Shown here piece after piece: positions 2,934-25,503 of a stretch of 64,000 bases of DNA. The notes beneath the pieces are model-generated. The model was not told where the DNA came from. It was given only the letters and a program-made list of their open reading frames with translations, and searched no databases. Both the position numbers and the translations under genes were made by a program. Every line of letters starts with the position of its first letter. Position 1 is the stretch's first letter. This DNA comes from Calditrichia bacterium. GTDB lineage: Bacteria > Calditrichota > Calditrichia > RBG-13-44-9 > J075. The stretch spans positions 3,086,187 through 3,150,186 of the forward strand of contig OZ245730.1 of the NCBI GenBank assembly GCA_965227145.1, written 5' to 3'.

Positions 2934-3893
2934 ATGAAAGAAGTTGCCTTTCTAAAACTGAATGCCGAAAAATGGAAAAAGCTGGAAGGGTTACTGAACA
3001 ATTCCGAACCGGTGGACGCAGATATTTACGCCGGTTTATTTCTGGAAATTACTGACGATCTCTCATTTGCCCGCACCCATTTTCCCGGCAGCAAAACAAC
3101 GCAATACCTCAACGGTTTGGCCGGAAAACTGCATCAGGAAATTTATCGCAATAAACGAACCGACAAAAACCGCATCATCAATTTTTGGAAAACCGAACTT
3201 CCGACACTTTACGCCAACCATCGCAAATCCTTGCTTTACAGCTTTCTGATTTTTGCAATTGCGGTGATGATCGGCACCCTTTCCACGCTGAATGACAATA
3301 CTTTTGTCCGGCTGATTTTGGGTGACGGCTATGTGAACATGACCGAACACAACATCGAAAAAGGCGATCCGCTGGCTGTTTACAAAGATGCCCGGCAACT
3401 GCAAATGTTTTTTGGAATTACTTTGAACAATATCCGGGTGTCTTTTCTCTGTTTTAGTGCAGGCATTTTACTATCGGTCGGAACCGCTTTTATGCTGTTT
3501 TTTAACGGCGTGATGTTGGGAACTTTCCACACTTTTTTTTATCTGAATTCGTTGTTGGGCGAGTCGTTACTGGTTATTTATATTCACGGTGCGCTGGAAA
3601 TTTCGGCAATCATCATCGCCGGTAGCGCCGGATTGGTGTTAGGCAACAGCATTTTGTTTCCCGGCTCATTTACCCGACGGGAATCGCTGCAACGCGGCGC
3701 GAAAGACGGTTTGAAAATCGCCATCGGGCTGGTGCCGGTTTTCATTGTTGCCGGATTTCTGGAATCATTTGTGACCCGGTACACCGAAATGCCGGTTGCT
3801 TTGAGCCTGCTGATTATTTTGGGCTCGCTCGCATTTATCGGATTTTATTTTATCGCATATCCTGCTTATCTGAACCAAAAGGCAAAAAAATGA
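2934..3893 (+). CDS. Integral membrane protein, SpoIIM-like (stage II sporulation protein M / DUF95 family)
   Basis: 319-aa ORF with several hydrophobic helices and a YIHGALEISAIIIAG segment; first gene of the conserved MoxR-containing cluster. Confidence 0.5.
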   Translation: MKEVAFLKLNAEKWKKLEGLLNNSEPVDADIYAGLFLEITDDLSFARTHFPGSKTTQYLNGLAGKLHQEIYRNKRTDKNRIINFWKTELPTLYANHRKSLLYSFLIFAIAVMIGTLSTLNDNTFVRLILGDGYVNMTEHNIEKGDPLAVYKDARQLQMFFGITLNNIRVSFLCFSAGILLSVGTAFMLFFNGVMLGTFHTFFYLNSLLGESLLVIYIHGALEISAIIIAGSAGLVLGNSILFPGSFTRRESLQRGAKDGLKIAIGLVPVFIVAGFLESFVTRYTEMPVALSLLIILGSLAFIGFYFIAYPAYLNQKAKK

Positions 3894-4798
3894 ACATGAC
3901 TGAACAAATTGATTTTCGCCAAACCCGCGATTTCAGTCAGGTACTGACCGAAACATTCAACTTTGTCCGCCAGAATATCAAAATTCTGGGGACACATTTG
4001 GTTATCGTAATGGGATTTCCGGCAGTTTTGGTAGGTTTTCTCACCGAATACTGGACGCCGAATGCAACCGATTTTCAAACATCCGGATTCGATTTTCTCG
4101 ATTATTATGCGGCACTGCTGCCGCTTTATTTAATCGCAATGTTGTTGAGCATTTTTTATTCCTGCCTGATTTACGCTTACACAATGTTGTATATCGAACG
4201 CGGATTCGACCAGTTCGAAACGCGCGATGTGTTCAATTATGCCAGCCGCTATTTGCTGAAGGCAACCATTGCATCGCTGCTTTCTTTTGTGTTTTTGATG
4301 GTTGCGGTTGTGATGTTTATCTTGCCGTTTTTTTATATTCTGGTACCACTGTCATTTTTATATATCGTTATTTTTAATGAAGATAAAGGTATTTTTGAAT
4401 CCATTTCCCGCTGTTTCGAAGTGGTTTCCGGTAACTGGTGGAACACTTTTGGATTGATCATTTTGCTCGGCGTGATTGTTTACATGCTCACCATTGCGGT
4501 TTCCGTGCCGCAAATTTTGATGGGCGTTTTCATCGAATTCAACGCCGCAAAAAATGAAGATATCGAAATGTATAAACTGATTTCGGCATTTTTGGGCGTT
4601 TTTACCAATTTAGCGGGATACCTCATTTTTCTCATTTTTCATTTTGGGATTATTTTCCAGTATTTCAGTTTGGTGGAACAAAAGGAAGTTCCCGGACTGC
4701 TTCGCCGCATCGATTCCATCGCCCAATCGGAAGAACCCGATGGCGAATCGCCGCCGGCGGCGATAGATTCCAACGCATCACCCGGAGACAAAGAATAG
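3890..4798 (+). CDS. Multi-pass membrane protein, function unknown
   Basis: 302-aa ORF, strongly hydrophobic segments; start overlaps previous stop by 4 nt (operon-like). Confidence 0.6.
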   Translation: MNMTEQIDFRQTRDFSQVLTETFNFVRQNIKILGTHLVIVMGFPAVLVGFLTEYWTPNATDFQTSGFDFLDYYAALLPLYLIAMLLSIFYSCLIYAYTMLYIERGFDQFETRDVFNYASRYLLKATIASLLSFVFLMVAVVMFILPFFYILVPLSFLYIVIFNEDKGIFESISRCFEVVSGNWWNTFGLIILLGVIVYMLTIAVSVPQILMGVFIEFNAAKNEDIEMYKLISAFLGVFTNLAGYLIFLIFHFGIIFQYFSLVEQKEVPGLLRRIDSIAQSEEPDGESPPAAIDSNASPGDKE

Positions 4799-17183: not shown

Positions 17184-18608
17184 TCAATAGGCGCCTTTGC
17201 CGAGGAAAGCCACCGGAATCGTTTCAAACAGGATTTCCATATCAAAGAAAATGGACTGGTTTTCGATATAATAGAGATCCAGCAAACACATTTCCTCGAA
17301 CGAGAGATTACTTCTGCCGGAAATTTGCCACAGTCCGGTGATACCCGGCTTGGTGTTCCCGCGCTTGGCATACCAATCGTAATTCACTTTGCCATTTTTG
17401 ATTTTGTTAAAATCATTGATCGGCAAGGGACGCGGTCCAACGATGCTCATATCCCCTTGTAATACATTAATAAACTGGGGAATTTCATCCAGGCTGTATT
17501 TGCGGAGGAATTTGCCGACCGGCGTTACCCGGGGATCATCCTTCATTTTGAACAATGCGCCGTTGGTTTCGTTATTTGCCCAGATTTTATCTTTCATGTC
17601 ATCAGCATTATCATACATGGTGCGGAATTTATAGAACCAGAATTCCGGGCCGCCTTTATACAGCGAACGTCTTTGTTTGAAAAAAACAGGACCTTTTGAA
17701 GTTAAGCGGATCATCGCTGCAATAATGGCACCGGCCGGAATGAGTAAAATACTGGCAAAAGCCAGAATAATTAAATCGAAGACCCGCTTCAGTCGGGACT
17801 GCCACACCGGCACCCGCAAACGCCGGCTGTCCGTGGATAGCGGCACGCCGGTAACATCTTTTACCTTGATCTGGTTCATCAGTTTTTTAACATCCGGCGA
17901 CACCATTTTAACCGCAACCCCAAAATGTTCGCAGGCTTTGCGGATCGGTTCGTATTTCTTTTCCAGCATGGAATCGCTGACAATAAACACTTTGTCGATG
18001 CCGTGTTCCGGGATAATCGTGTCCACATCGTGGTATTTACCGATAATATACGGCGCAATTTCGGGATGGTGATGGGGCGTGCCGTTGGCGATAAACCCGC
18101 GCAAATCGTAATAATCACCGTATGCATCCGTCAGGATTTCGGTAAAGCGCAGGGCAGACAGATCAGTGCCAACCACCAGTATCCGCTGATTGCCAAATCC
18201 CTTATTAAACAGGCGCAGGTTGATTTTGTGCATCAGGGTGTGCATGACTTCCAGAATGATGTATTGGGACATCAGAAAGATAATTACCACGCCTCGGGAA
18301 AACTCATGTCCCTTGATCAAGAACAGATAGGACATCGTGAGCAGACCGAGGTAGTAGGTCATTATTTTGAGGTGCTGTTTCTGATGCAAAATCGGGCTGC
18401 TGTAAACACTCCGGTAAAGCCCGAGGATAGCGGCCAGCGGGAAAAAGATCAGGTTGACAAATAGCCAGGGCTCAAAATATCTGGCTAAGGGTTCATCCAA
18501 TTCCGGGAAACGAAGATACAGCGCCAGCCGGAAAGCAGCGTTGATCATGATGAAATCGCCAATCATGACGAGCATCGTATAGACGAATCGCCAATTCCGT
18601 TTTAGCAT
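17184..18608 (-). CDS. Initiating polyprenyl-phosphate sugar phosphotransferase (WbaP/CpsE-type bacterial sugar transferase)
   Basis: 474 aa; N-terminal TMs and C-terminal catalytic domain (KRVFDLI, FFKQRR, YKFRTM, RVTPVGKFLRKYSLDEIPQFINVLQGDMSIVGPRP). Confidence 0.9.
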   Translation of the reverse strand: MLKRNWRFVYTMLVMIGDFIMINAAFRLALYLRFPELDEPLARYFEPWLFVNLIFFPLAAILGLYRSVYSSPILHQKQHLKIMTYYLGLLTMSYLFLIKGHEFSRGVVIIFLMSQYIILEVMHTLMHKINLRLFNKGFGNQRILVVGTDLSALRFTEILTDAYGDYYDLRGFIANGTPHHHPEIAPYIIGKYHDVDTIIPEHGIDKVFIVSDSMLEKKYEPIRKACEHFGVAVKMVSPDVKKLMNQIKVKDVTGVPLSTDSRRLRVPVWQSRLKRVFDLIILAFASILLIPAGAIIAAMIRLTSKGPVFFKQRRSLYKGGPEFWFYKFRTMYDNADDMKDKIWANNETNGALFKMKDDPRVTPVGKFLRKYSLDEIPQFINVLQGDMSIVGPRPLPINDFNKIKNGKVNYDWYAKRGNTKPGITGLWQISGRSNLSFEEMCLLDLYYIENQSIFFDMEILFETIPVAFLGKGAY

Positions 18609-19808
18609 GAGGTTAATCCTGTTTCAGTAAAGATTGTTGAATTTAGATTACAGACACTATTTTCGGCAGTTAAACTGCGGACTTTAATGATTGAAAATAT
18701 TTGTATTTTCGCGCCGCTTATTAAACTTTTTTTGCAACAGAGGCGCAAGGGCTCACAGAGAAAGGTTCATGAAGCCCGTGTTAATTATACTGCAATTGGT
18801 CATTACCATTATTTACATCAATATTAAACCAGATTCCTGCTCCGAAGGAGCGCCTTTGGCGCGGATGCAGGAATCTCCTGCTCAAAAAGTTATTTAGTGC
18901 AATCTCTCAGGTCTTCCGTGATGCTGCGGCTAAAATGCAAAACATCAGTTGTTAAAAAACAAGCCGACAGTATAACACATTAACCTTATATTGCGCAATT
19001 TCTTTTTAAATGCTAATGTTACCGGTCATTTGTGCTGACAGGATAACAGGATTTACCGGATCGTAAGTGCAGATACAAATTTAATTGGTTCTCTGACAAT
19101 TTTTGTGGAATAAGTTCTGTTACTGCGCCAGCCTGAGCCCTTCGGTAAGCTCAGGATAAACTGCGTCGAAGGTCGTCATTCGATAAAAAACAGAGGCTTT
19201 CCCGCAAAGCGGGACTCAGCATGACAGAATATGCATGTTTTAGCTGACTTCCACACTATTTGTCAAAGAACGATTAAATTAATATTTTCAATGTAAGGCT
19301 GAGGGAATCGAAGGACAATTCATAATGATAGCGGCTTCGACTTCGCTCAGCCTGACAAGATTTACATTTTAATTAGCAAATTATGGTAGTGTCACTATTT
19401 AATTGATATTTCAACATACAGATGCTTCGTCTCCCGGCTTTCCGGGAAAGAATCTCGTCTTTATGGTGTATCAAATCACTCAATATCTACCACTACCCAA
19501 ATTATTTCTGTCAAGGCACTTATGATGTTTATCAAATTGAGTCTTGTCATTTCCGAATCAACCAAAAACCGTGATATTTTGATGATACAATCAACAATTT
19601 ATTTTCTTGATCATCATGCATATCCTGTCAAACAAACCACTTCCATGTTTTGATTTGCGACTCAAAATACATCATTATATAGGTGCATTTGTGACTGGCT
19701 TAACAGATCGGCAAAATTCATTATATATTCCCATTTTTGTTGATATTCTTCCGTAAATAAAAATCCCCGCCATGAATATGACGGGGCTGGAAAGAACATC
19801 CCCCCTGC

Positions 19809-20005
19809 GCTGCCATTAAGTTAAGGATCAAAGTGGGCAGTTTTGTCACCCTGAGCTAAGTGTCACCCTGAGCACAGTGTCACCCTGAGCGCAGTCGAAG
19901 GGTCGATGGGTCGATGGGTCGATGGGTCGATGGGTAATTTTGCCGTGCATATATCATGGTTCGACTTCGCTCACCATGACAGGTTGTGCTTAACTTAATG
20001 GCAGC
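19809..20005. repeat. 17-bp perfect inverted repeat pair (GCTGCCATTAAGTTAAG / CTTAACTTAATGGCAGC) bracketing a 163-bp repeat-filled segment
   Basis: Arms at 19809..19825 and 19989..20005, read directly. Confidence 0.8.
19845..19936. repeat. Tandem repeat tract: 3 x 16-bp GTCACCCTGAGCnnnn units then (GGGTCGATG)x4
   Basis: Direct reading; reverse-complement copy with 8 units at 22195..22366. Confidence 0.85.
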
Positions 20006-20012
20006 ATTTCAA

Positions 20013-20066
20013 AGGAGGGGATGTCTGATTTCCCCCTTCGAAGGGGGATTAAGGGGGATGTTATCC
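20013..20066. repeat. Solo copy of the palindromic element family (core CCCCCTTCGAAGGGGG)
   Basis: GGGGATGTCTGATTTCCCCCTTCGAAGGGGGATTAAGGGGGATG; same core as arrays at 50.7 and 51.9-52.35 kb. Confidence 0.8.
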
Positions 20067-20107
20067 TGCGGAACGCATATACGCGTTCTCTGCAAATGTT
20101 ATGTATC

Positions 20108-21037
20108 TTACGGCTGCTGGGCCAGATACCATTGATAGGTTTGGGTAATGCCATCCCGTAAAGAGATACCGGCTTTCCACCCCAAACCATTCAGTTTGGA
20201 GACATCCAGCAGTTTGCGGGGCGTGCCGTCCGGTTTGGATGTGTCAAACGTTAGTTCACCGCTAAAACCAACGATATCCTTAATCAGCAGCGCCAGGTCT
20301 TTTATTGCGATATCCTCACCCACCCCGATATTGACAATCTCGCTATCTGCATAGTGCTGCATCAGATACACACAGGCATCCGCCAGATCATCCGCATGCA
20401 GGAATTCCCGTTTGGGTGAACCAGTCCCCCAGATTTCCACGGACGGTTTTCCGGCAAGTTTGGCTTCATGAAACTTGCGGATCAGCGCCGGCAGGACGTG
20501 GGAACTTTGCAGATCGAAATTATCGTTGGATCCATACAAATTGGTGGGCATCACCGAAATAAATGATGTGCCATACTGGCGATTAAAGGACTGGCAGGTT
20601 TTGATCCCGGCAATCTTGGCGATAGCGTAAGGCTCGTTGGTCGGTTCCAGCTTGCCGTCCAGCAAATGTTCTTCCTTCATCGGTTGCGGGGCGAATTTGG
20701 GATAAATACAGGAGCTACCCAAAAACAGCAGCTTTTTCACCCCGTTCCGGTAGCTGTGATGAATAATATTGGACTGGATCATCAGGTTATCGTAGATAAA
20801 ATCCGCCGGATAATCGTTATTGGCCAAAATGCCGCCCACTTTGGCGGCAGCCAAAAATACGTATTCCGGCTGCTCTTTTTCAAAGAAAGCCGCAACGGCT
20901 GCCTGATTCCGTAGATCAAGTTCTGCGGATCGTTTGAGCACCAGATTGTTAAATCCGTTTGATGCCAACCGCCGTGCTATGGCGGAGCCAACCAGACCGC
21001 GATGTCCGGCTATGTAGATTTTTGATGTTGTTTTCAT
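20108..21037 (-). CDS. fcl: GDP-L-fucose synthase
   Basis: 309 aa; extended-SDR motifs [11 protein letters not shown], YxxxK (YAIAKIAG), and Fcl-typical NLYGSNDNF. Confidence 0.9.
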
Positions 21038-21040
21038 GTT

Positions 21041-21092
21041 GGGTGTATGGGTTAGTGGGTGAATGGGTTGATGGGTTATGGGTTGATGGGGA
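21041..21092. repeat. Simple repeat tract (GGGTnnATG-like nonamers)
   Basis: GGGTGTATGGGTTAGTGGGTGAATGGGTTGATGGGTTATGGGTTGATGGGG. Confidence 0.8.
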
Positions 21093-21266
21093 AACTGGGG
21101 GAAGTTCAGTCATTCCCGCAGGTTCCCCGATAAATAACTTCGGGGACCTGCTTTAGCGGAAATCCATCGCTATACAGTCAACATATCACCCCGCTGGGGT
21201 TTCTCATAAAAATATGGGATAATTTTCTATAAACATGTAACTGCTCTGCAGTTATTTGCATTGAAG

Positions 21267-21341
21267 CCAAAACCCCGGAGGGGTAACATGTTTATATTCG
21301 GAAAATAAATGAAACTATCCAAAACCCCGGAGGGGTGACAT
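21267..21341. repeat. Direct repeat of CCAAAACCCCGGAGGGGT[A/G]ACAT, two copies ~52 bp apart, upstream of fcl
   Basis: Copies at 21267..21290 and 21319..21341; each contains a CCCC-GGA-GGGG mini-hairpin. Confidence 0.7.
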
Positions 21342-21525
21342 TTTATAATGGTTTTAATAAAAAATTTCCAAAGAACTTATCAGCCCTGCCATTTGATGAG
21401 GGATGTTGAGGACTGCCAGACATCAAACGAATCGGTAAAAGAGAAAGTTTTATAAAACACGTTCAATAGCTCGATAGCTGTATCTGCAGATGCTATTGGA
21501 TGAGCCTGTCGAAGCCGGACTTTTT

Positions 21526-21750
21526 TTACAATTGTTTCAGGAGACTGTCATAATCGGCGTGGGAACATACCCAGAACCAAGGGATGTAATCCGTTTTTAT
21601 TACACCAACTGCCCGGTAATCCCTGCTTATTCGCACGGAATATACCGGCAGACTTGAATGAATTCTCTTAAATCGGAGTCCGGGATACCAGGGATCTTTA
21701 CGGAATACAGCATAAGCTACTTTTGCCTGTTTTTTTATTTCTGCAGGCAA
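21526..21750 (-). CDS. RelE/ParE-superfamily toxin-like protein (type II TA toxin, putative)
   Basis: 74 aa; VYSVRISRDYRAVGV...IPWFWVCSHADYD resembles the RelE/ParE beta-sheet core; sits just downstream of a small acidic ORF. Confidence 0.5.
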   Translation of the reverse strand: MPAEIKKQAKVAYAVFRKDPWYPGLRFKRIHSSLPVYSVRISRDYRAVGVIKTDYIPWFWVCSHADYDSLLKQL

Positions 21751-21792
21751 ATCATAGTAATTTTTTCAAAAATCGGGATGTTGCCTTTGATC

Positions 21793-22014
21793 TCACAATT
21801 TGTCAATGTCCAGATGGGTCGCATTACCCTGTTCATCTTCTTCCAACGCTTCCAAAGCCAGCTTAGCCAATGCGTCTTCAGATTCAGCAAACTTTTTATC
21901 CCACAGTTTTTCCGAATCAATTTCATCAAGTATCCAACGCGCTAATGCATTTTGTTCGATTTCCGGAAGCCGGGACATTTTTTTAAACGCTTTTTCCAAT
22001 AAACGGGTCATCAT
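21793..22014 (-). CDS. Putative antitoxin partner of the RelE/ParE-like toxin
   Basis: 73 aa, acidic C-terminal half, directly upstream of and co-oriented with the toxin ORF (43-nt gap). Confidence 0.4.
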   Translation of the reverse strand: MMTRLLEKAFKKMSRLPEIEQNALARWILDEIDSEKLWDKKFAESEDALAKLALEALEEDEQGNATHLDIDKL

Positions 22015-22107
22015 TTAATACCTGGCAGTTGTTATATGATCATAAATTAAATATAGTCGCAAACTGCATGTGTAGTCAATGGTCAATTTTATTGGCGGGT
22101 TGTGATC

Positions 22108-22166
22108 AGCTTTTAGCTTTTGGCTTTTAGCTTTTGGCTTTTGGCTTTTGGCTTTTGGCTTTTGGC
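22108..22166. repeat. (GGCTTT/AGCTTT)n hexamer tract
   Basis: AGCTTTTAGCTTTTGGCTTTTAGCTTTTGGCTTTTGGCTTTTGGCTTTTGGC. Confidence 0.85.
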
Positions 22167-22194
22167 AAGAAAACCCAGGGTTTACCTTCCGCCG

Positions 22195-22366
22195 CTTTGC
22201 CGCTTCGACCCTTCGACCCTTCGACTGCGCTCAGGGTGACACTGCGCTCAGGGTGACACTTGCTCAGGGTGACACTGCGCTCAGGGTGACACTTGCTCAG
22301 GGTGACACTTGCTCAGGGTGACAATCGCTCAGGGTGACACTGCGCTCAGGGTGACACTGCGCTCAG
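22195..22366. repeat. Tandem repeat tract: (CCTTCGAC)x3 then 8 x 16-bp GCTCAGGGTGACAnnn units; inverted copy of 19845..19936
   Basis: Direct reading; reverse complement gives GTCACCCTGAGC units as in the 19.85-kb tract. Confidence 0.85.
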
Positions 22367-22470
22367 GACAAGCCTTTTACTTTTTCCCTTCGGCTTCGCT
22401 CAGGACGAGCCTTTTTACTTTTTACTTTTTCCCTTCGGCTTCGCTCAGGACGAGCCTTTTTACTTATTTC
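22357..22470. repeat. ~48-bp direct repeat x2 (CGCTCAGGACRAGCC-TTTTTACT-TTTTCCCTTCGGCTT) just 3' of gmd
   Basis: Direct reading. Confidence 0.7.
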
Positions 22471-23565
22471 ACTGCTTCATCTGTTTTTCAATCTTGGCCA
22501 ACCGGTAATCTGCGACAATCATAATATCGACCAGTTCCCTGAAGGTGGTTTGGGGTTGCCAGCCGAGATGTTTTTTGGCTTTAGCCGGATCACCGATCAG
22601 CAAATCCACCTCGGTGGGACGGTAATAACGCGGGTCAATGGCCACAACCGTTTGCCCGACGCGAAAGGCCGGAGAGCGTTCCAGTCCCGGCAATTTGGGA
22701 TCATCGATATTGGCAATCACCGCATATTCTTCGCTACCGTTGCCCTGCCACTGCAAGGTTACCCCGAAGCCATCAAACGAGGCTTCGATAAATTCCCGAA
22801 CAGAATTGGTCTGTCCGGTTGCCAGCACAAAATCATCCGGTTCGCTTTGCTGGAGCATGCGCCACATACCTTCCACATATTCCGGTGCGTAGCCCCAATC
22901 GCGTTTGGCATCGAGATTTCCCATAAACAATTGTCCTGCTCGCCGATAGCCATCCGGGTAATCGCCCGGGTGATCTTGCGGGTCACAAAAGTTTCCCCGC
23001 GCCGGGGCGATTCGTGGTTAAACAAAATCCCGTTGCAGGCAAAGAGGTTATAGGCTTCGCGATAGTTCACGGTGATCCAGAAGGCATACATTTTGGCAAC
23101 GCCGTAAGGGCTGCGGGGATAAAACGGGGTGCTTTCCGTCTGCGGCACTTCCTGCACTTTGCCGTAAAGCTCCGATGTAGAAGCCTGGTAAAACCGCGCT
23201 TTGATACCGGTTTCTTTAATCGCATCGAGAAAACGCAGCGTGCCGACAGCATCCACTTCCGCAGTATATTCCGGCACCTGGAAAGAAACACCGACGTGAC
23301 TCTGGGCGGCCAGATTATAAATTTCATCCGGCTGCACCTTTTCAAGAATGCGGTTGAGGTTGGAGGAATCGGTCAAGTCCCCGTAATGCAGCACCATTTT
23401 GCGGGGCTGTTCGTGGGGATCCTGGTAAATATGTTCAATACGCTGGGTGTTAAAATTGCTGGCGCGACGGACAATGCCGTGCACCTGATAGCCTTTTTCA
23501 ATCAGCAGTTCAGTTAAATAACTGCCATCCTGACCGGTTATGCCGGTAATGAGTGCCTTTTTCAT
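22469..23565 (-). pseudogene. gmd: GDP-mannose 4,6-dehydratase, reading frame broken by an apparent 1-nt deletion (or sequencing error)
   Basis: Track ORFs 22759..23592 and 22469..22930 are the N- and C-terminal parts of one Gmd ([31 protein letters not shown] / [12 protein letters not shown]). Frames switch at 22925..22936, where GACAATTG would read through as GACAAATTG. Likely start is the second Met (MKKALITG) at 23565. Confidence 0.8.
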
Positions 23566-23718
23566 TGATGCCTCATGATTTTCTTTTGCCATGAATATTC
23601 ACGAATGGTCACGAATATCTGTAATTTTTGTCTTGAAATCAATGCTTGTATGAATTGACAGATGTCAATCATTGTTTGGGTAAATGGGTGTATGGGTAAA
23701 TGAGTGAATGGGTATAAG

Positions 23719-23940
23719 ACGCACCTCGTTACAGGCTCCTGCCTGGAATGTCTTTATCCGGTGAGGGATGATTTGGATACAATAATGGAACAGCTACGAT
23801 GTTCGACGCACCTCGTTACAGGCTCCTGCCTGGAATGTCTTTATCCGGTTATTTGGATACAATAACGGAACATCTACGATGTTCGACGCACCTCGTTACA
23901 GGCTCCTGCCTGGAATGTCTTTATCCGGTTAGGGAAGCAA
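23719..23940. repeat. ~86-bp tandem direct repeat, about 2.6 copies, upstream of gmd
   Basis: Unit GACGCACCTCGTTACAGGCTCCTGCCTGGAATGTCTTTATCCGGT...TTTGGATACAATAATGGAACAGCTACGATGTTC; partial fourth copy at 24086..24120. Confidence 0.85.
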
Positions 23941-24024
23941 AAGCAGGTGATTTGAACAAAATCATTAAAAACCGCGTAGCGGTTACATTATTGTAGAAAA
24001 TGAGTGGCAACCGGATAAATAAAT

Positions 24025-24063
24025 CCTCGTAGAGGATTCATCGTGCATTAACCCTCTACGAGG
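24025..24063. repeat. Perfect 11-bp-stem hairpin (CCTCGTAGAGG ... CCTCTACGAGG)
   Basis: Arms 24025..24035 and 24053..24063; 17-nt loop. Confidence 0.7.
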
Positions 24064-24393
24064 GTTGGTCGGTTGGGTGAAATGATTTGGCTACAATAAT
24101 GGAACATCTACGATGTAATCTTGTGTATGGTCAATTGTCAATTGTCGATGGTCGATGGTCAATTCCGAGTTCCCCGCCGCGAAGCGGTTCCTTCGGAAAA
24201 GGAGCATCTTCGGCGTCGAGTTTCGAGTTTCCGATTCCATCTGGAGCAAAACTACCGCAAAAATAAACCAATAACCTATATAATGAAAAAACCCTGCTGC
24301 CGGGTGTACTCCCGGTCGATCAGGGTTATGTTGTTGCTAGTGAAACGTCTTAAACAATAGGGAAATGGAACAACCCAGTATTAATGGATAACT

Positions 24394-25503
24394 TCATTTT
24401 TTTGAAAGTGTCATTTTTTGAAACAACTCGATATACTGATCGGTTATCTTACCCCAGGTGTAGCATTCCGTTATCCTGTTCCGGGAAATCTTTCTTTGGG
24501 CAGAAATTATATTGGGATTTTCTTCAAGGGATTTAATCAAGTCGATTAATGAATCGTCATGCTTGCGAAAATATACGCCATATTTGCCATTGTCCAGCAC
24601 TTCCCGGCTAAAACGGGTATCCAGTGCAATAATCGCACACCCATAAGCCAGGGCTTTTAGCAATGTTGGATTTGTACCACCAAATTCATGCCCGTGAAAA
24701 TAGGCAAAACAATTATGATAGAGTTCAGCCAATTCATCCTGATCGGTTACATAGCCGGTAAAAATCACGCGGGGATCGCTAACCTGTTTTATTTTCTGGG
24801 CATAGTCATCATTATAAGGCACATCACCGACCACGACCAGTTGCTTGTCTGAATTTGATTTTACAAACCGCTCTACAATCACATCCGCATTATTATCCGG
24901 GATCAGGCGACCAACAATTAAATAATACCCTTCTTTTTGTAGTTGCCAGCGTTCGATGAGTTCCGGTTGTTTGGAATGTCGAATATTTGCACCATAGGCA
25001 ATGACGGTTGAATCGGCATTAAATGTCTCTTTATAAATCTTACCCATTTCAACAGAGTCGGTAATAATTTCATTATACAATTTGGTCGCTAATTTGGAAG
25101 CAGTGTAAAAATATTTTGCCCCTAATCCTTGCCATTTGGGGCGCAGCCATTCCAAACCATCCACATTGATTGCGGTTCTTTTACCCAAAATACGGGAAAA
25201 CAAACCAAACGGTCCGTTTGCCGAGTTAACTGCCAGAACAAGGTCATAATCTTTTGTGCAGGCATGTATCATGGATTGGAAAGAATGAACAAACTGGCTG
25301 AGCGTTTTTTTCTCTATAGTGTTAATATAAACAAGGTTCACACCATTGACGGTATCGGGATAAGTGGTAAAAAGGTTCTTGTGACAATAAACCGTTACAT
25401 CAATACCTTTTTTGACCAGCCGCTCACATAGTTCCTTTACAAATGTTTCATAACCGCTATATACGTAAGGATAGCCGCGTGAGCCAATAATCGCGATTTT
25501 CAT
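24394..25503 (-). CDS. Glycosyltransferase, GT-B fold (family 1/4-like)
   Basis: 369 aa; C-terminal [19 protein letters not shown] resembles the GT4 E-x7-E sugar-donor motif. Confidence 0.75.

Follow-up and report, generated by a model that had tools for sequence, protein, structure and literature searches.

The 64,000-nucleotide (nt) stretch of a Calditrichia bacterium contig that was analysed here, hereafter the window (OZ245730.1, positions 3,086,187 to 3,150,186), carries the genes gmd and fcl for GDP-mannose 4,6-dehydratase and GDP-L-fucose synthase, respectively. We argue that the spacer between these two genes very probably holds a decayed chromosomal type II toxin-antitoxin (TA) cassette of the RelE/ParE superfamily, in which the antitoxin gene is intact and the toxin gene has become a pseudogene. 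A preliminary description of this DNA had noted that some 1.4 kb of repeat-rich sequence parts gmd from fcl and had read two small open reading frames (ORFs) within it as a TA pair. The spacer, at 21038-22468, is indeed 1431 nt long and rich in repeats, tandem arrays and hairpin repeats among them; the reading of the pair requires revision. All relevant genes lie on the minus strand, and the principal features are the following.

20108..21037, minus strand: fcl (GDP-L-fucose synthase; NF047922 equivalog, 520 bits against a cut-off of 500), the flank downstream of the insertion
21526..21796, minus strand: toxin pseudogene of the PF24732 ParE_like / RelE-fold family, 271 nt, that is, a 270-nt gene plus one extra base
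21526..21750, minus strand: remnant ORF of 74 codons with a TTG start, a piece inside the toxin pseudogene; the TTG is the internal Leu16 codon
21761..21772, minus strand: inactivating lesion in the toxin gene, placed by nucleotide alignment, translations and the FWK consensus of homologues
21793..22014, minus strand: antitoxin gene, 73 amino acids (aa), intact, acidic
22469..23592, minus strand: gmd (GDP-mannose 4,6-dehydratase; TIGR01472), the flank upstream of the insertion, present as two ORFs in the window

The 74-codon ORF, in which both motifs quoted earlier for a RelE/ParE-like toxin are found (YSVRISRDYRAVGV and WFWVCSHADYD), matches the Pfam model PF24732 ParE_like ("ParE-like toxin domain") over profile positions 2-66 of 67, with 46.3 bits against a cut-off of 24.4 (E = 4.2e-12); full-length intact relatives score 39-54 bits on the same model. 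With such a match the ORF is no mere chance frame, and the family assignment of the preliminary description stands, but the ORF is not a whole toxin. The homologues are 89-94 aa long and all begin with MxSxTTxxFWKxYxxLP, an N-terminus that the ORF of the window lacks, and in all 14 related loci examined the toxin is 89-92 aa long, with a 4-nt overlap between its start and the stop of the antitoxin gene. The 74-aa protein P0001, from a metagenome-assembled genome of Rifleibacteriota, was considered as a naturally short toxin and rejected: its start is mis-called, since the reading frame stays open further upstream, as far as a TTG in overlap with the stop codon of the antitoxin gene. Neither the remnant nor the full-length toxins match any NCBIfam model, scans of both proteins of the pair against PADLOC and PHROGs gave nothing meaningful, and a literature search on PF24732 found nothing specific.

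The start/stop overlap that characterizes the intact loci has been kept in the window, where a GTG at 21796-21794 overlaps the TGA stop of the antitoxin gene (GTGA, 21793-21796). Reading from this GTG yields MRSKATSRF, the first nine codons of the family N-terminus, followed by LKKLL and a stop, and the remainder of the toxin sits in the +1 frame (F*KNYYDLPAEIKK...), in which the codon for the conserved Trp10 is TGA (21768-21766). A four-way nucleotide alignment places the lesion at 21761-21772 (T5-G-A6), with TTTTTGAAAAAA in the window versus TTTTGGAAAAA in intact alleles, which amounts to a frameshift of +1 nt. In place of an uninterrupted toxin frame of 89-92 aa, the window thus has a frameshift and a TGA at codon 10. 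The two ORFs do lie where the preliminary description had put them, but they are separated by 42 nt (21751-21792) and not by 43 nt, and, in view of the frameshift at codon 10, this gap represents the disabled 5' end of the toxin gene rather than a spacer. Reading of the TGA as tryptophan was ruled out, since the antitoxin gene too has TGA as its stop codon, the genes nearby are normal when translated with code 11, and codons 1-9 of the toxin lie in the other frame. The remnant ORF, with an isoelectric point (pI) of 9.8, is basic; it lacks residues 1-15, which correspond to strand β1 and helix α1 of the full-length model, and the truncated product would have lost its function. The window copy is also the only one with a Gly-to-Cys replacement at a near-invariant glycine (WFWVGSH to WFWVCSH) and with His14 replaced by Tyr, substitutions that are consistent with relaxed constraint, their number being too small for a formal test.

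The main alternative to a pseudogene is a working TA module, in which the TTG at 21750, 42 nt past the antitoxin stop, would serve as the start codon of a 74-aa toxin. Such a possibility is suggested by the openness of the 74-codon frame, by its coverage of nearly the entire PF24732 model and by the retention of the conserved motifs FKRIH, DYRAVG and WFW..SH.DY. Still, we consider it very unlikely: once the start of P0001 is corrected, the family has no member that is naturally 74 aa long, the 42 nt upstream of the TTG continue to encode the family N-terminus, although out of frame, and the product would be devoid of β1 and α1 and would carry a cysteine at the near-invariant glycine position; moreover, no obvious Shine-Dalgarno sequence can be read before the TTG.

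The lesion is genuine and polymorphic in nature, as can be judged from the relatives of the window. Two of these, L003 (98.8% nucleotide identity to the window) and L094 (~92%), have the same arrangement of gmd-side repeats, antitoxin, toxin and fcl; at the same site between gmd and fcl, both carry TTTTGGAAAAA and encode an 89-aa toxin without interruption. Two others, L001 (SPAdes contig from ENA) and L002 (Logan contig, seen in 5 samples), which are independent short-read assemblies of a strain that has diverged by ~4% (~96% identity), share the frameshift allele TTTTTGAAAAAA with the window. Since L094 is the outgroup and fits the family consensus FWK, the intact state of the toxin is ancestral, and since both a substitution and an indel set the frameshift alleles apart from the intact ones, recurrent mutation is an unlikely source of the shared lesion. 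The nearby gmd of the window also has a 1-nt homopolymer deletion, which is not found in L001, and one might therefore suspect that the toxin frameshift is an artefact of sequencing or assembly and that the organism itself has an intact toxin. The occurrence of the same allele, base substitution included, in two independent assemblies of a diverged strain shows that the frameshift did not arise in the assembly of this genome, so that we assign very little weight to this explanation. Toxin-only decay, furthermore, recurs in the family, as the toxin gene of L011 (4216-4482) has been broken independently, by an in-frame nonsense codon at codon 23, next to an intact antitoxin gene.

The antitoxin-first order, in which the preliminary description had recognized a module of the RelE/ParE superfamily, is a constant feature of the family: a toxin homologue immediately follows an antitoxin homologue in 14 of 14 loci, and a 4-nt overlap (GTGA, TTGA or ATGA) is present in every related locus fetched, be it via the antitoxin or via the toxin homologue. 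The hosts of the paired loci include Rifleibacteriota, Methylohalobius (two genomes) and Calditrichia, the others being unclassified metagenome contigs; an 8.8-Mb metagenome contig carries two identical copies of the module that adjoin transposases. In Methylohalobius (L009 and L010, 3977-4499), the module separates sufB from sufC in the Fe-S assembly operon, starting 23 nt past the sufB stop and having no room for a promoter of its own, so that a conserved operon harbours the family here as well. A plasmid collection contained four cyanobacterial toxin homologues, either annotated as hypothetical (RefSeq) or present in unannotated records, and no antitoxin match. In most loci, gene callers have missed the toxin or mis-called its start. 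Taken together, the conserved pairing, the unrelated contexts, the association with transposases and plasmids, and the recurring decay of the toxin fit a mobile type II TA cassette, and the earlier suggestion that the pair marks a mobile insertion accords with the patchy distribution of the module across phyla.

As judged from structural models, the full-length toxins have a RelE/YoeB-like fold and belong to the RelE/ParE superfamily. The AlphaFold 2 (AF2) model of the full-length homologue P0002 (65% identical), with a pLDDT of 93.4, shows the topology β1-α1-α2-β-β-β-α (strands E2-5, E51-57, E60-67 and E70-78; helices H7-14, H18-33 and H79-91). When this model was compared with the PDB using Foldseek, the best matches, with template modelling (TM) scores of 0.6-0.7 and a probability of 1.0, were RelE3 (3bpq), YoeB of S. 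pneumoniae and E. coli, RelE1/2/3 of M. tuberculosis, YafQ, HigB, and HP0892/HP0894 of H. pylori. Canonical gyrase-poisoning ParE structures were not among the top 50 structural matches, which included only the A. tumefaciens "YoeB/ParE" 6n90. The sequence profile of the toxin reaches 3bpq_B in the PDB at E = 0.054. The invariant positions of the family are the K in FKR, the R in VRI, the Y-R in DYRAVG, and the H and Y in SHxDY; in a non-significant hhalign comparison with E. coli RelE and YoeB (E = 0.13-0.14), R55 falls on K54 of RelE and Y60-R61 on Y60-R61. Since the fold is closest to that of the RNases RelE, YoeB and YafQ, cleavage of mRNA is favoured, and the toxin is most likely a ribosome-dependent mRNA endonuclease rather than a gyrase poison.

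The window family resembles the RelBE and YefM-YoeB systems (3bpq; YoeB 2a6q/2a6r; RelE 3g5o/3oei/9g12) in the fold of the toxin (Foldseek TM 0.66-0.71, probability 1.0), in the toxin size of 84-95 aa, in the antitoxin-first order with a start-stop overlap, and in the basic and aromatic residues on the sheet and the C-terminal helix. It differs from them in that the identity is only 13-24%, there is no match to the Pfam or NCBIfam models of RelE, YoeB and YafQ, and the antitoxin is a two-helix protein, unlike RelB with its ribbon-helix-helix (RHH) fold or Phd/YefM. With ParDE the family shares the name of the PF24732 domain, the RelE/ParE superfamily and the operon logic; unlike in ParDE, the antitoxin is all-helical without an RHH, the best structural matches of the toxin are of the RNase type, and nothing points to gyrase as the target.

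The upstream ORF is, as described earlier, small and acidic: its 73-aa product has a pI of 4.6, with 18 D+E versus 11 K+R, compared to a pI of 10.1 for the intact toxin. The exact protein is present in a public collection (P0012), together with 61 close homologues, nearly all of 72 aa, and an antitoxin profile retrieves 3023 cluster representatives (clusters at 50% identity) at E ≤ 1e-3, of which 1009 remain at E ≤ 1e-10. The AF2 model (pLDDT 90) consists of two helices, residues 2-13 and 18-61, with no N-terminal strand. The profile search that had been proposed for both ORFs succeeded, as described above, for the toxin; for the antitoxin there was no match above threshold in Pfam or NCBIfam, and RHH, helix-turn-helix, AbrB and Phd domains were not found. 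Nor did Foldseek match the antitoxin model to any PDB entry, and a PDB sequence search with the antitoxin profile returned only chance matches to calcineurin B helices. An RHH model matched in only 1 of 44 antitoxin homologues (E = 0.09). Sub-threshold matches to PF09720 Unstab_antitox were seen in 5 of the same 44 (best E = 0.0014), which hints at a remote sequence relationship with this "putative addiction module component". The antitoxins of PF09720 and TIGR02574 have an N-terminal motif, LPxxE(Q/R)xxLAxxLLxEL, similar to that of the window antitoxin, but the latter itself matches neither model at E ≤ 1. Residues 18-61 also weakly resemble a helical segment of the BREX methyltransferase PglX / DUF7008 (E = 0.015 in Pfam, 0.059 in NCBIfam and 0.024 in PADLOC), and 12 of the 44 homologues show sub-threshold DUF7008 matches; this is probably a compositional or helical likeness. 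Upstream of the antitoxin gene, two features can be listed.

22050..22079, minus strand: sigma-70-like promoter candidate TTGACT-18-TATATT, 10 of 12 matches, ~36 nt upstream of the antitoxin ATG
22035-22044: 10-bp palindrome TATGATCATA, upstream of the antitoxin gene

Promoter-like sites are not enriched over shuffled sequences, which leaves the promoter a weak candidate, and upstream of the antitoxin genes in the other loci there is no conserved palindrome, operator or promoter-like site.

It could be asked whether the pair is a TA system at all, or rather a small regulator/chaperone pair or a defence-accessory pair that shares the RelE fold, given that no known antitoxin domain scores above threshold and that RefSeq calls the plasmid copies hypothetical proteins. 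We hold this to be highly improbable, considering the tightly conserved bicistron with its 4-nt overlap, the combination of an acidic and a basic partner, the RelE/YoeB-type fold, the patchy cross-phylum distribution with transposons and plasmids, the sub-threshold PF09720 matches, and the inactivation of the toxin only, which is seen in the window, L001, L002 and L011.

Accepting a decayed TA cassette, the sequence of events can be envisaged as follows. A cassette with a gene for a 72-73-aa, acidic, all-helical antitoxin, followed by a gene for an 89-aa, basic PF24732 toxin, would have been inserted in the ancestor of the species group. In the intact copies, the start/stop overlap (GTGA) would allow the toxin to be made by translational coupling; the antitoxin would hold the toxin inactive, the acidic (pI 4.6) and basic (pI 10.1) character of the partners being consistent with binding; and the intact toxin would cleave mRNA. 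In the window, the extra base at T5-G-A6 would have cut the first nine codons from the rest, with the Gly-to-Cys replacement gained in addition, so that the cassette would supply an orphan antitoxin at most. As the toxin appears to be dead, stabilization of the locus by post-segregational killing is not to be expected in this strain, and the earlier proposal that the TA pair stabilizes the polysaccharide locus has to be abandoned for it.

Several points weigh against this interpretation. The remnant spans nearly the whole PF24732 model, and its sequence would permit some residual activity upon internal initiation at the TTG. For any member of the PF24732 pair, toxicity and neutralisation are deduced from sequences and models. 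The antitoxin has no recognisable DNA-binding domain, so that a classical, autoregulated type II architecture is no more than a possibility. Finally, the distribution of the lesion is at odds with the relatedness of the flanks: the window is nearest to L003, which is intact, yet it has the lesion in common with the more distant L001 and L002. Recombination among co-occurring strains is suggested as the simplest account of this conflict, the history being otherwise more complicated. As to a bypass of the frameshift by recoding, which would yield low amounts of full-length toxin and make the module attenuated or phase-variable, the lesion does lie within homopolymer runs, and either a +1 ribosomal shift at CTA-TGA (21757-21752) or, upon transcriptional slippage in the A6/T5 runs, the loss of one A in the mRNA would give an 89-aa product, but the runs are short (5-6 nt), no Shine-Dalgarno-like stimulator lies upstream of the stop at the putative shift site, the putative shift codon is not conserved (CCA in L001 and L002 versus CTA in the window), and the alleles differ by a substitution plus an indel rather than simply by run length, so that this scenario is hardly credible.

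Is the decayed cassette indeed an insertion? A search with the Fcl of the window found 80 loci, in 52 of which gmd and fcl are in tandem. In these 52 genomes, the spacer has a median length of 61 nt and is ≤150 nt in 36 and >400 nt in 11, which bears out the earlier statement that the two genes are normally adjacent; the TA pair of the window occurs in none of the 80 loci. Given the median of 61 nt, the cassette represents an insertion into a normally short spacer, and this insertion predates the split of the lineages of the window, L001, L003 and L094. Among the closest available genomes with a short spacer is L016 (151 nt), which has a CCAT-rich fcl leader in common with the window; a CCAT-rich leader of similar kind precedes fcl in L016, L024 and L094. 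The spacer of the window contains further features besides the TA genes, and one arm of an inverted repeat lies beyond fcl.

22109..22470: tandem-array block between the gmd stop and the cassette, with the 7-mer GCTTTTG x8, the 8-mer CTTCGACC x3, the 17-mer ACTGCGCTCAGGGTGAC x8.7 and a 45-mer x2.7
22182..22367: upstream arm of a long-range inverted repeat, composed of the arrays of the 17-mer and the 8-mer
19844..19937: downstream arm of the same repeat, directly past the 3' end of fcl
21095..21495: 401-nt segment from the toxin remnant to the fcl leader; an unrelated 109 nt is found at the same place in L094

The two arms of the inverted repeat, 80 nt at 85% complementarity, enclose the antitoxin gene, the toxin pseudogene and fcl. 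The core motif GCTCAGGGTGACA of the 17-mer is found, within the 64-kb window, only in the two arm arrays, and the RNA duplex predicted for the arms comprises ~90 base pairs with -162 kcal/mol, compared to -54±6 for shuffled sequences. A terminator-like hairpin is located past the downstream arm, at 19786..19765(-). The 8-mer TGGGTNNA, which is rich in CCCA when read on the coding strand, forms arrays at 21040-21092, directly 5' of the fcl start, at 23669-23713, 5' of the gmd start, and at 19899-19943, after fcl. A 26-nt hairpin repeat, CCAAAACCCCGGAGGGGTRACAT, occurs in two copies, 21267-21292 and 21319-21344, and nowhere else in the window. Upstream of gmd there is an 80-nt tandem duplication (97% identity; 23771-23931), with a further partial copy at 24082-24116 and several local inverted repeats. 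The tandem arrays were considered as the ends of the TA cassette and rejected in this role, as nine TA loci in other hosts lack arrays directly flanking the pair; the repeats belong to the intergenic DNA of this lineage and not to the TA cassette.

Long gmd-fcl spacers of 450-900 nt are found in Calditrichaceae, Desulfobacteraceae, Thiotrichaceae and Nitrospirales, and inverted short-tandem-repeat arrays often flank their inserts. These spacers contain a four-helix-bundle gene (TIGR02436) in L015, L020, L023, L043 and L070 and a GxxExxY gene (TIGR04256) in L025 and L049, while the spacer of L044 has nested repeats only; terminal inverted repeats of 23-36 nt are present in L015, L020, L023, L044 and L049. 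TIGR02436 is the family of proteins encoded in 23S ribosomal RNA (rRNA) intervening sequences. Hence one might speculate, and we do so as a conjecture that is unlikely to hold, that the gmd-fcl spacer repeatedly receives small selfish cassettes that have inverted short-tandem-repeat arrays at their borders and resemble the intervening sequences of 23S rRNA. If this were the case, the TA pair would travel as cargo in cassettes of a class so far undescribed, which invade operons and are processed at the RNA level, and, provided that the arms pair in the transcript and RNase III cuts there, the expression of fcl and of the TA genes would be uncoupled from that of gmd or tuned apart from it. A literature search on the theme of four-helix-bundle proteins, GxxExxY proteins and tandem repeats found nothing specific.

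Both chromosomal TA cassettes and their decay are very common; in this respect the present case changes little, being that of an ordinary decaying selfish cassette. For genome annotation it may be of use, as the toxin often goes uncalled and the antitoxin family, with its ~1000 clusters, has no Pfam or NCBIfam model. It also sounds a caution: before a TA-like pair is taken to stabilise a polysaccharide locus, one should make sure that its toxin is intact. The intact and frameshifted toxins at the same site in co-occurring Calditrichia strains make up a natural allelic series, which offers a way to ask what fitness effect an operon-embedded TA system has. The chromosomal pair IPF_1067/IPF_1065 of Microcystis aeruginosa is RelE/ParE-like too; its genes overlap, its antitoxin is mostly alpha-helical, and repeats fence it in (PMC7935541). 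In a sister strain a natural deletion truncates its toxin, and trimming of the C-terminal region of the toxin abolished toxicity (PMC7935541). The window pair is alike in being chromosomal and overlapping, with a helical antitoxin and repeats nearby, a likeness drawn from the description of that pair; unlike in the window, the repeats of the Microcystis pair are direct and flank the TA pair only, and the pair adjoins an orthocaspase gene instead of being part of a sugar-nucleotide operon (PMC7935541).

The surroundings of gmd and fcl form a surface-polysaccharide cluster with genes for glycosyltransferases, Bac_transf and Wzi, as indicated by Pfam labels on the ~96%-identical contig L001 (Calditrichia_J042). 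In the window, gmd consists of two overlapping ORFs, 22759..23592 and 22469..22930, owing to a 1-nt deletion in a GGG run ("gagca-ggac" versus "gagcagggac" in L001, where gmd is intact and encodes 365 aa). The split could be a homopolymer error of the assembly; otherwise gmd is a true pseudogene, and GDP-fucose synthesis would be lost. In the ~1.5 kb downstream of fcl (18608-20108), ORFs do not exceed 68 aa, and L001 lacks a gene call in this region; an Rfam scan of 18000-24500 gave only a sub-threshold match to IS009 at 19539-19674(-), with E = 0.4. Upstream of gmd, at a place corresponding to about 24116-24161 of the window, L001 has an extra ~1 kb (3067-4065) with a DUF4160 gene and a gene for a 78-aa protein, which is another small variable intergenic cassette of the same polysaccharide cluster.

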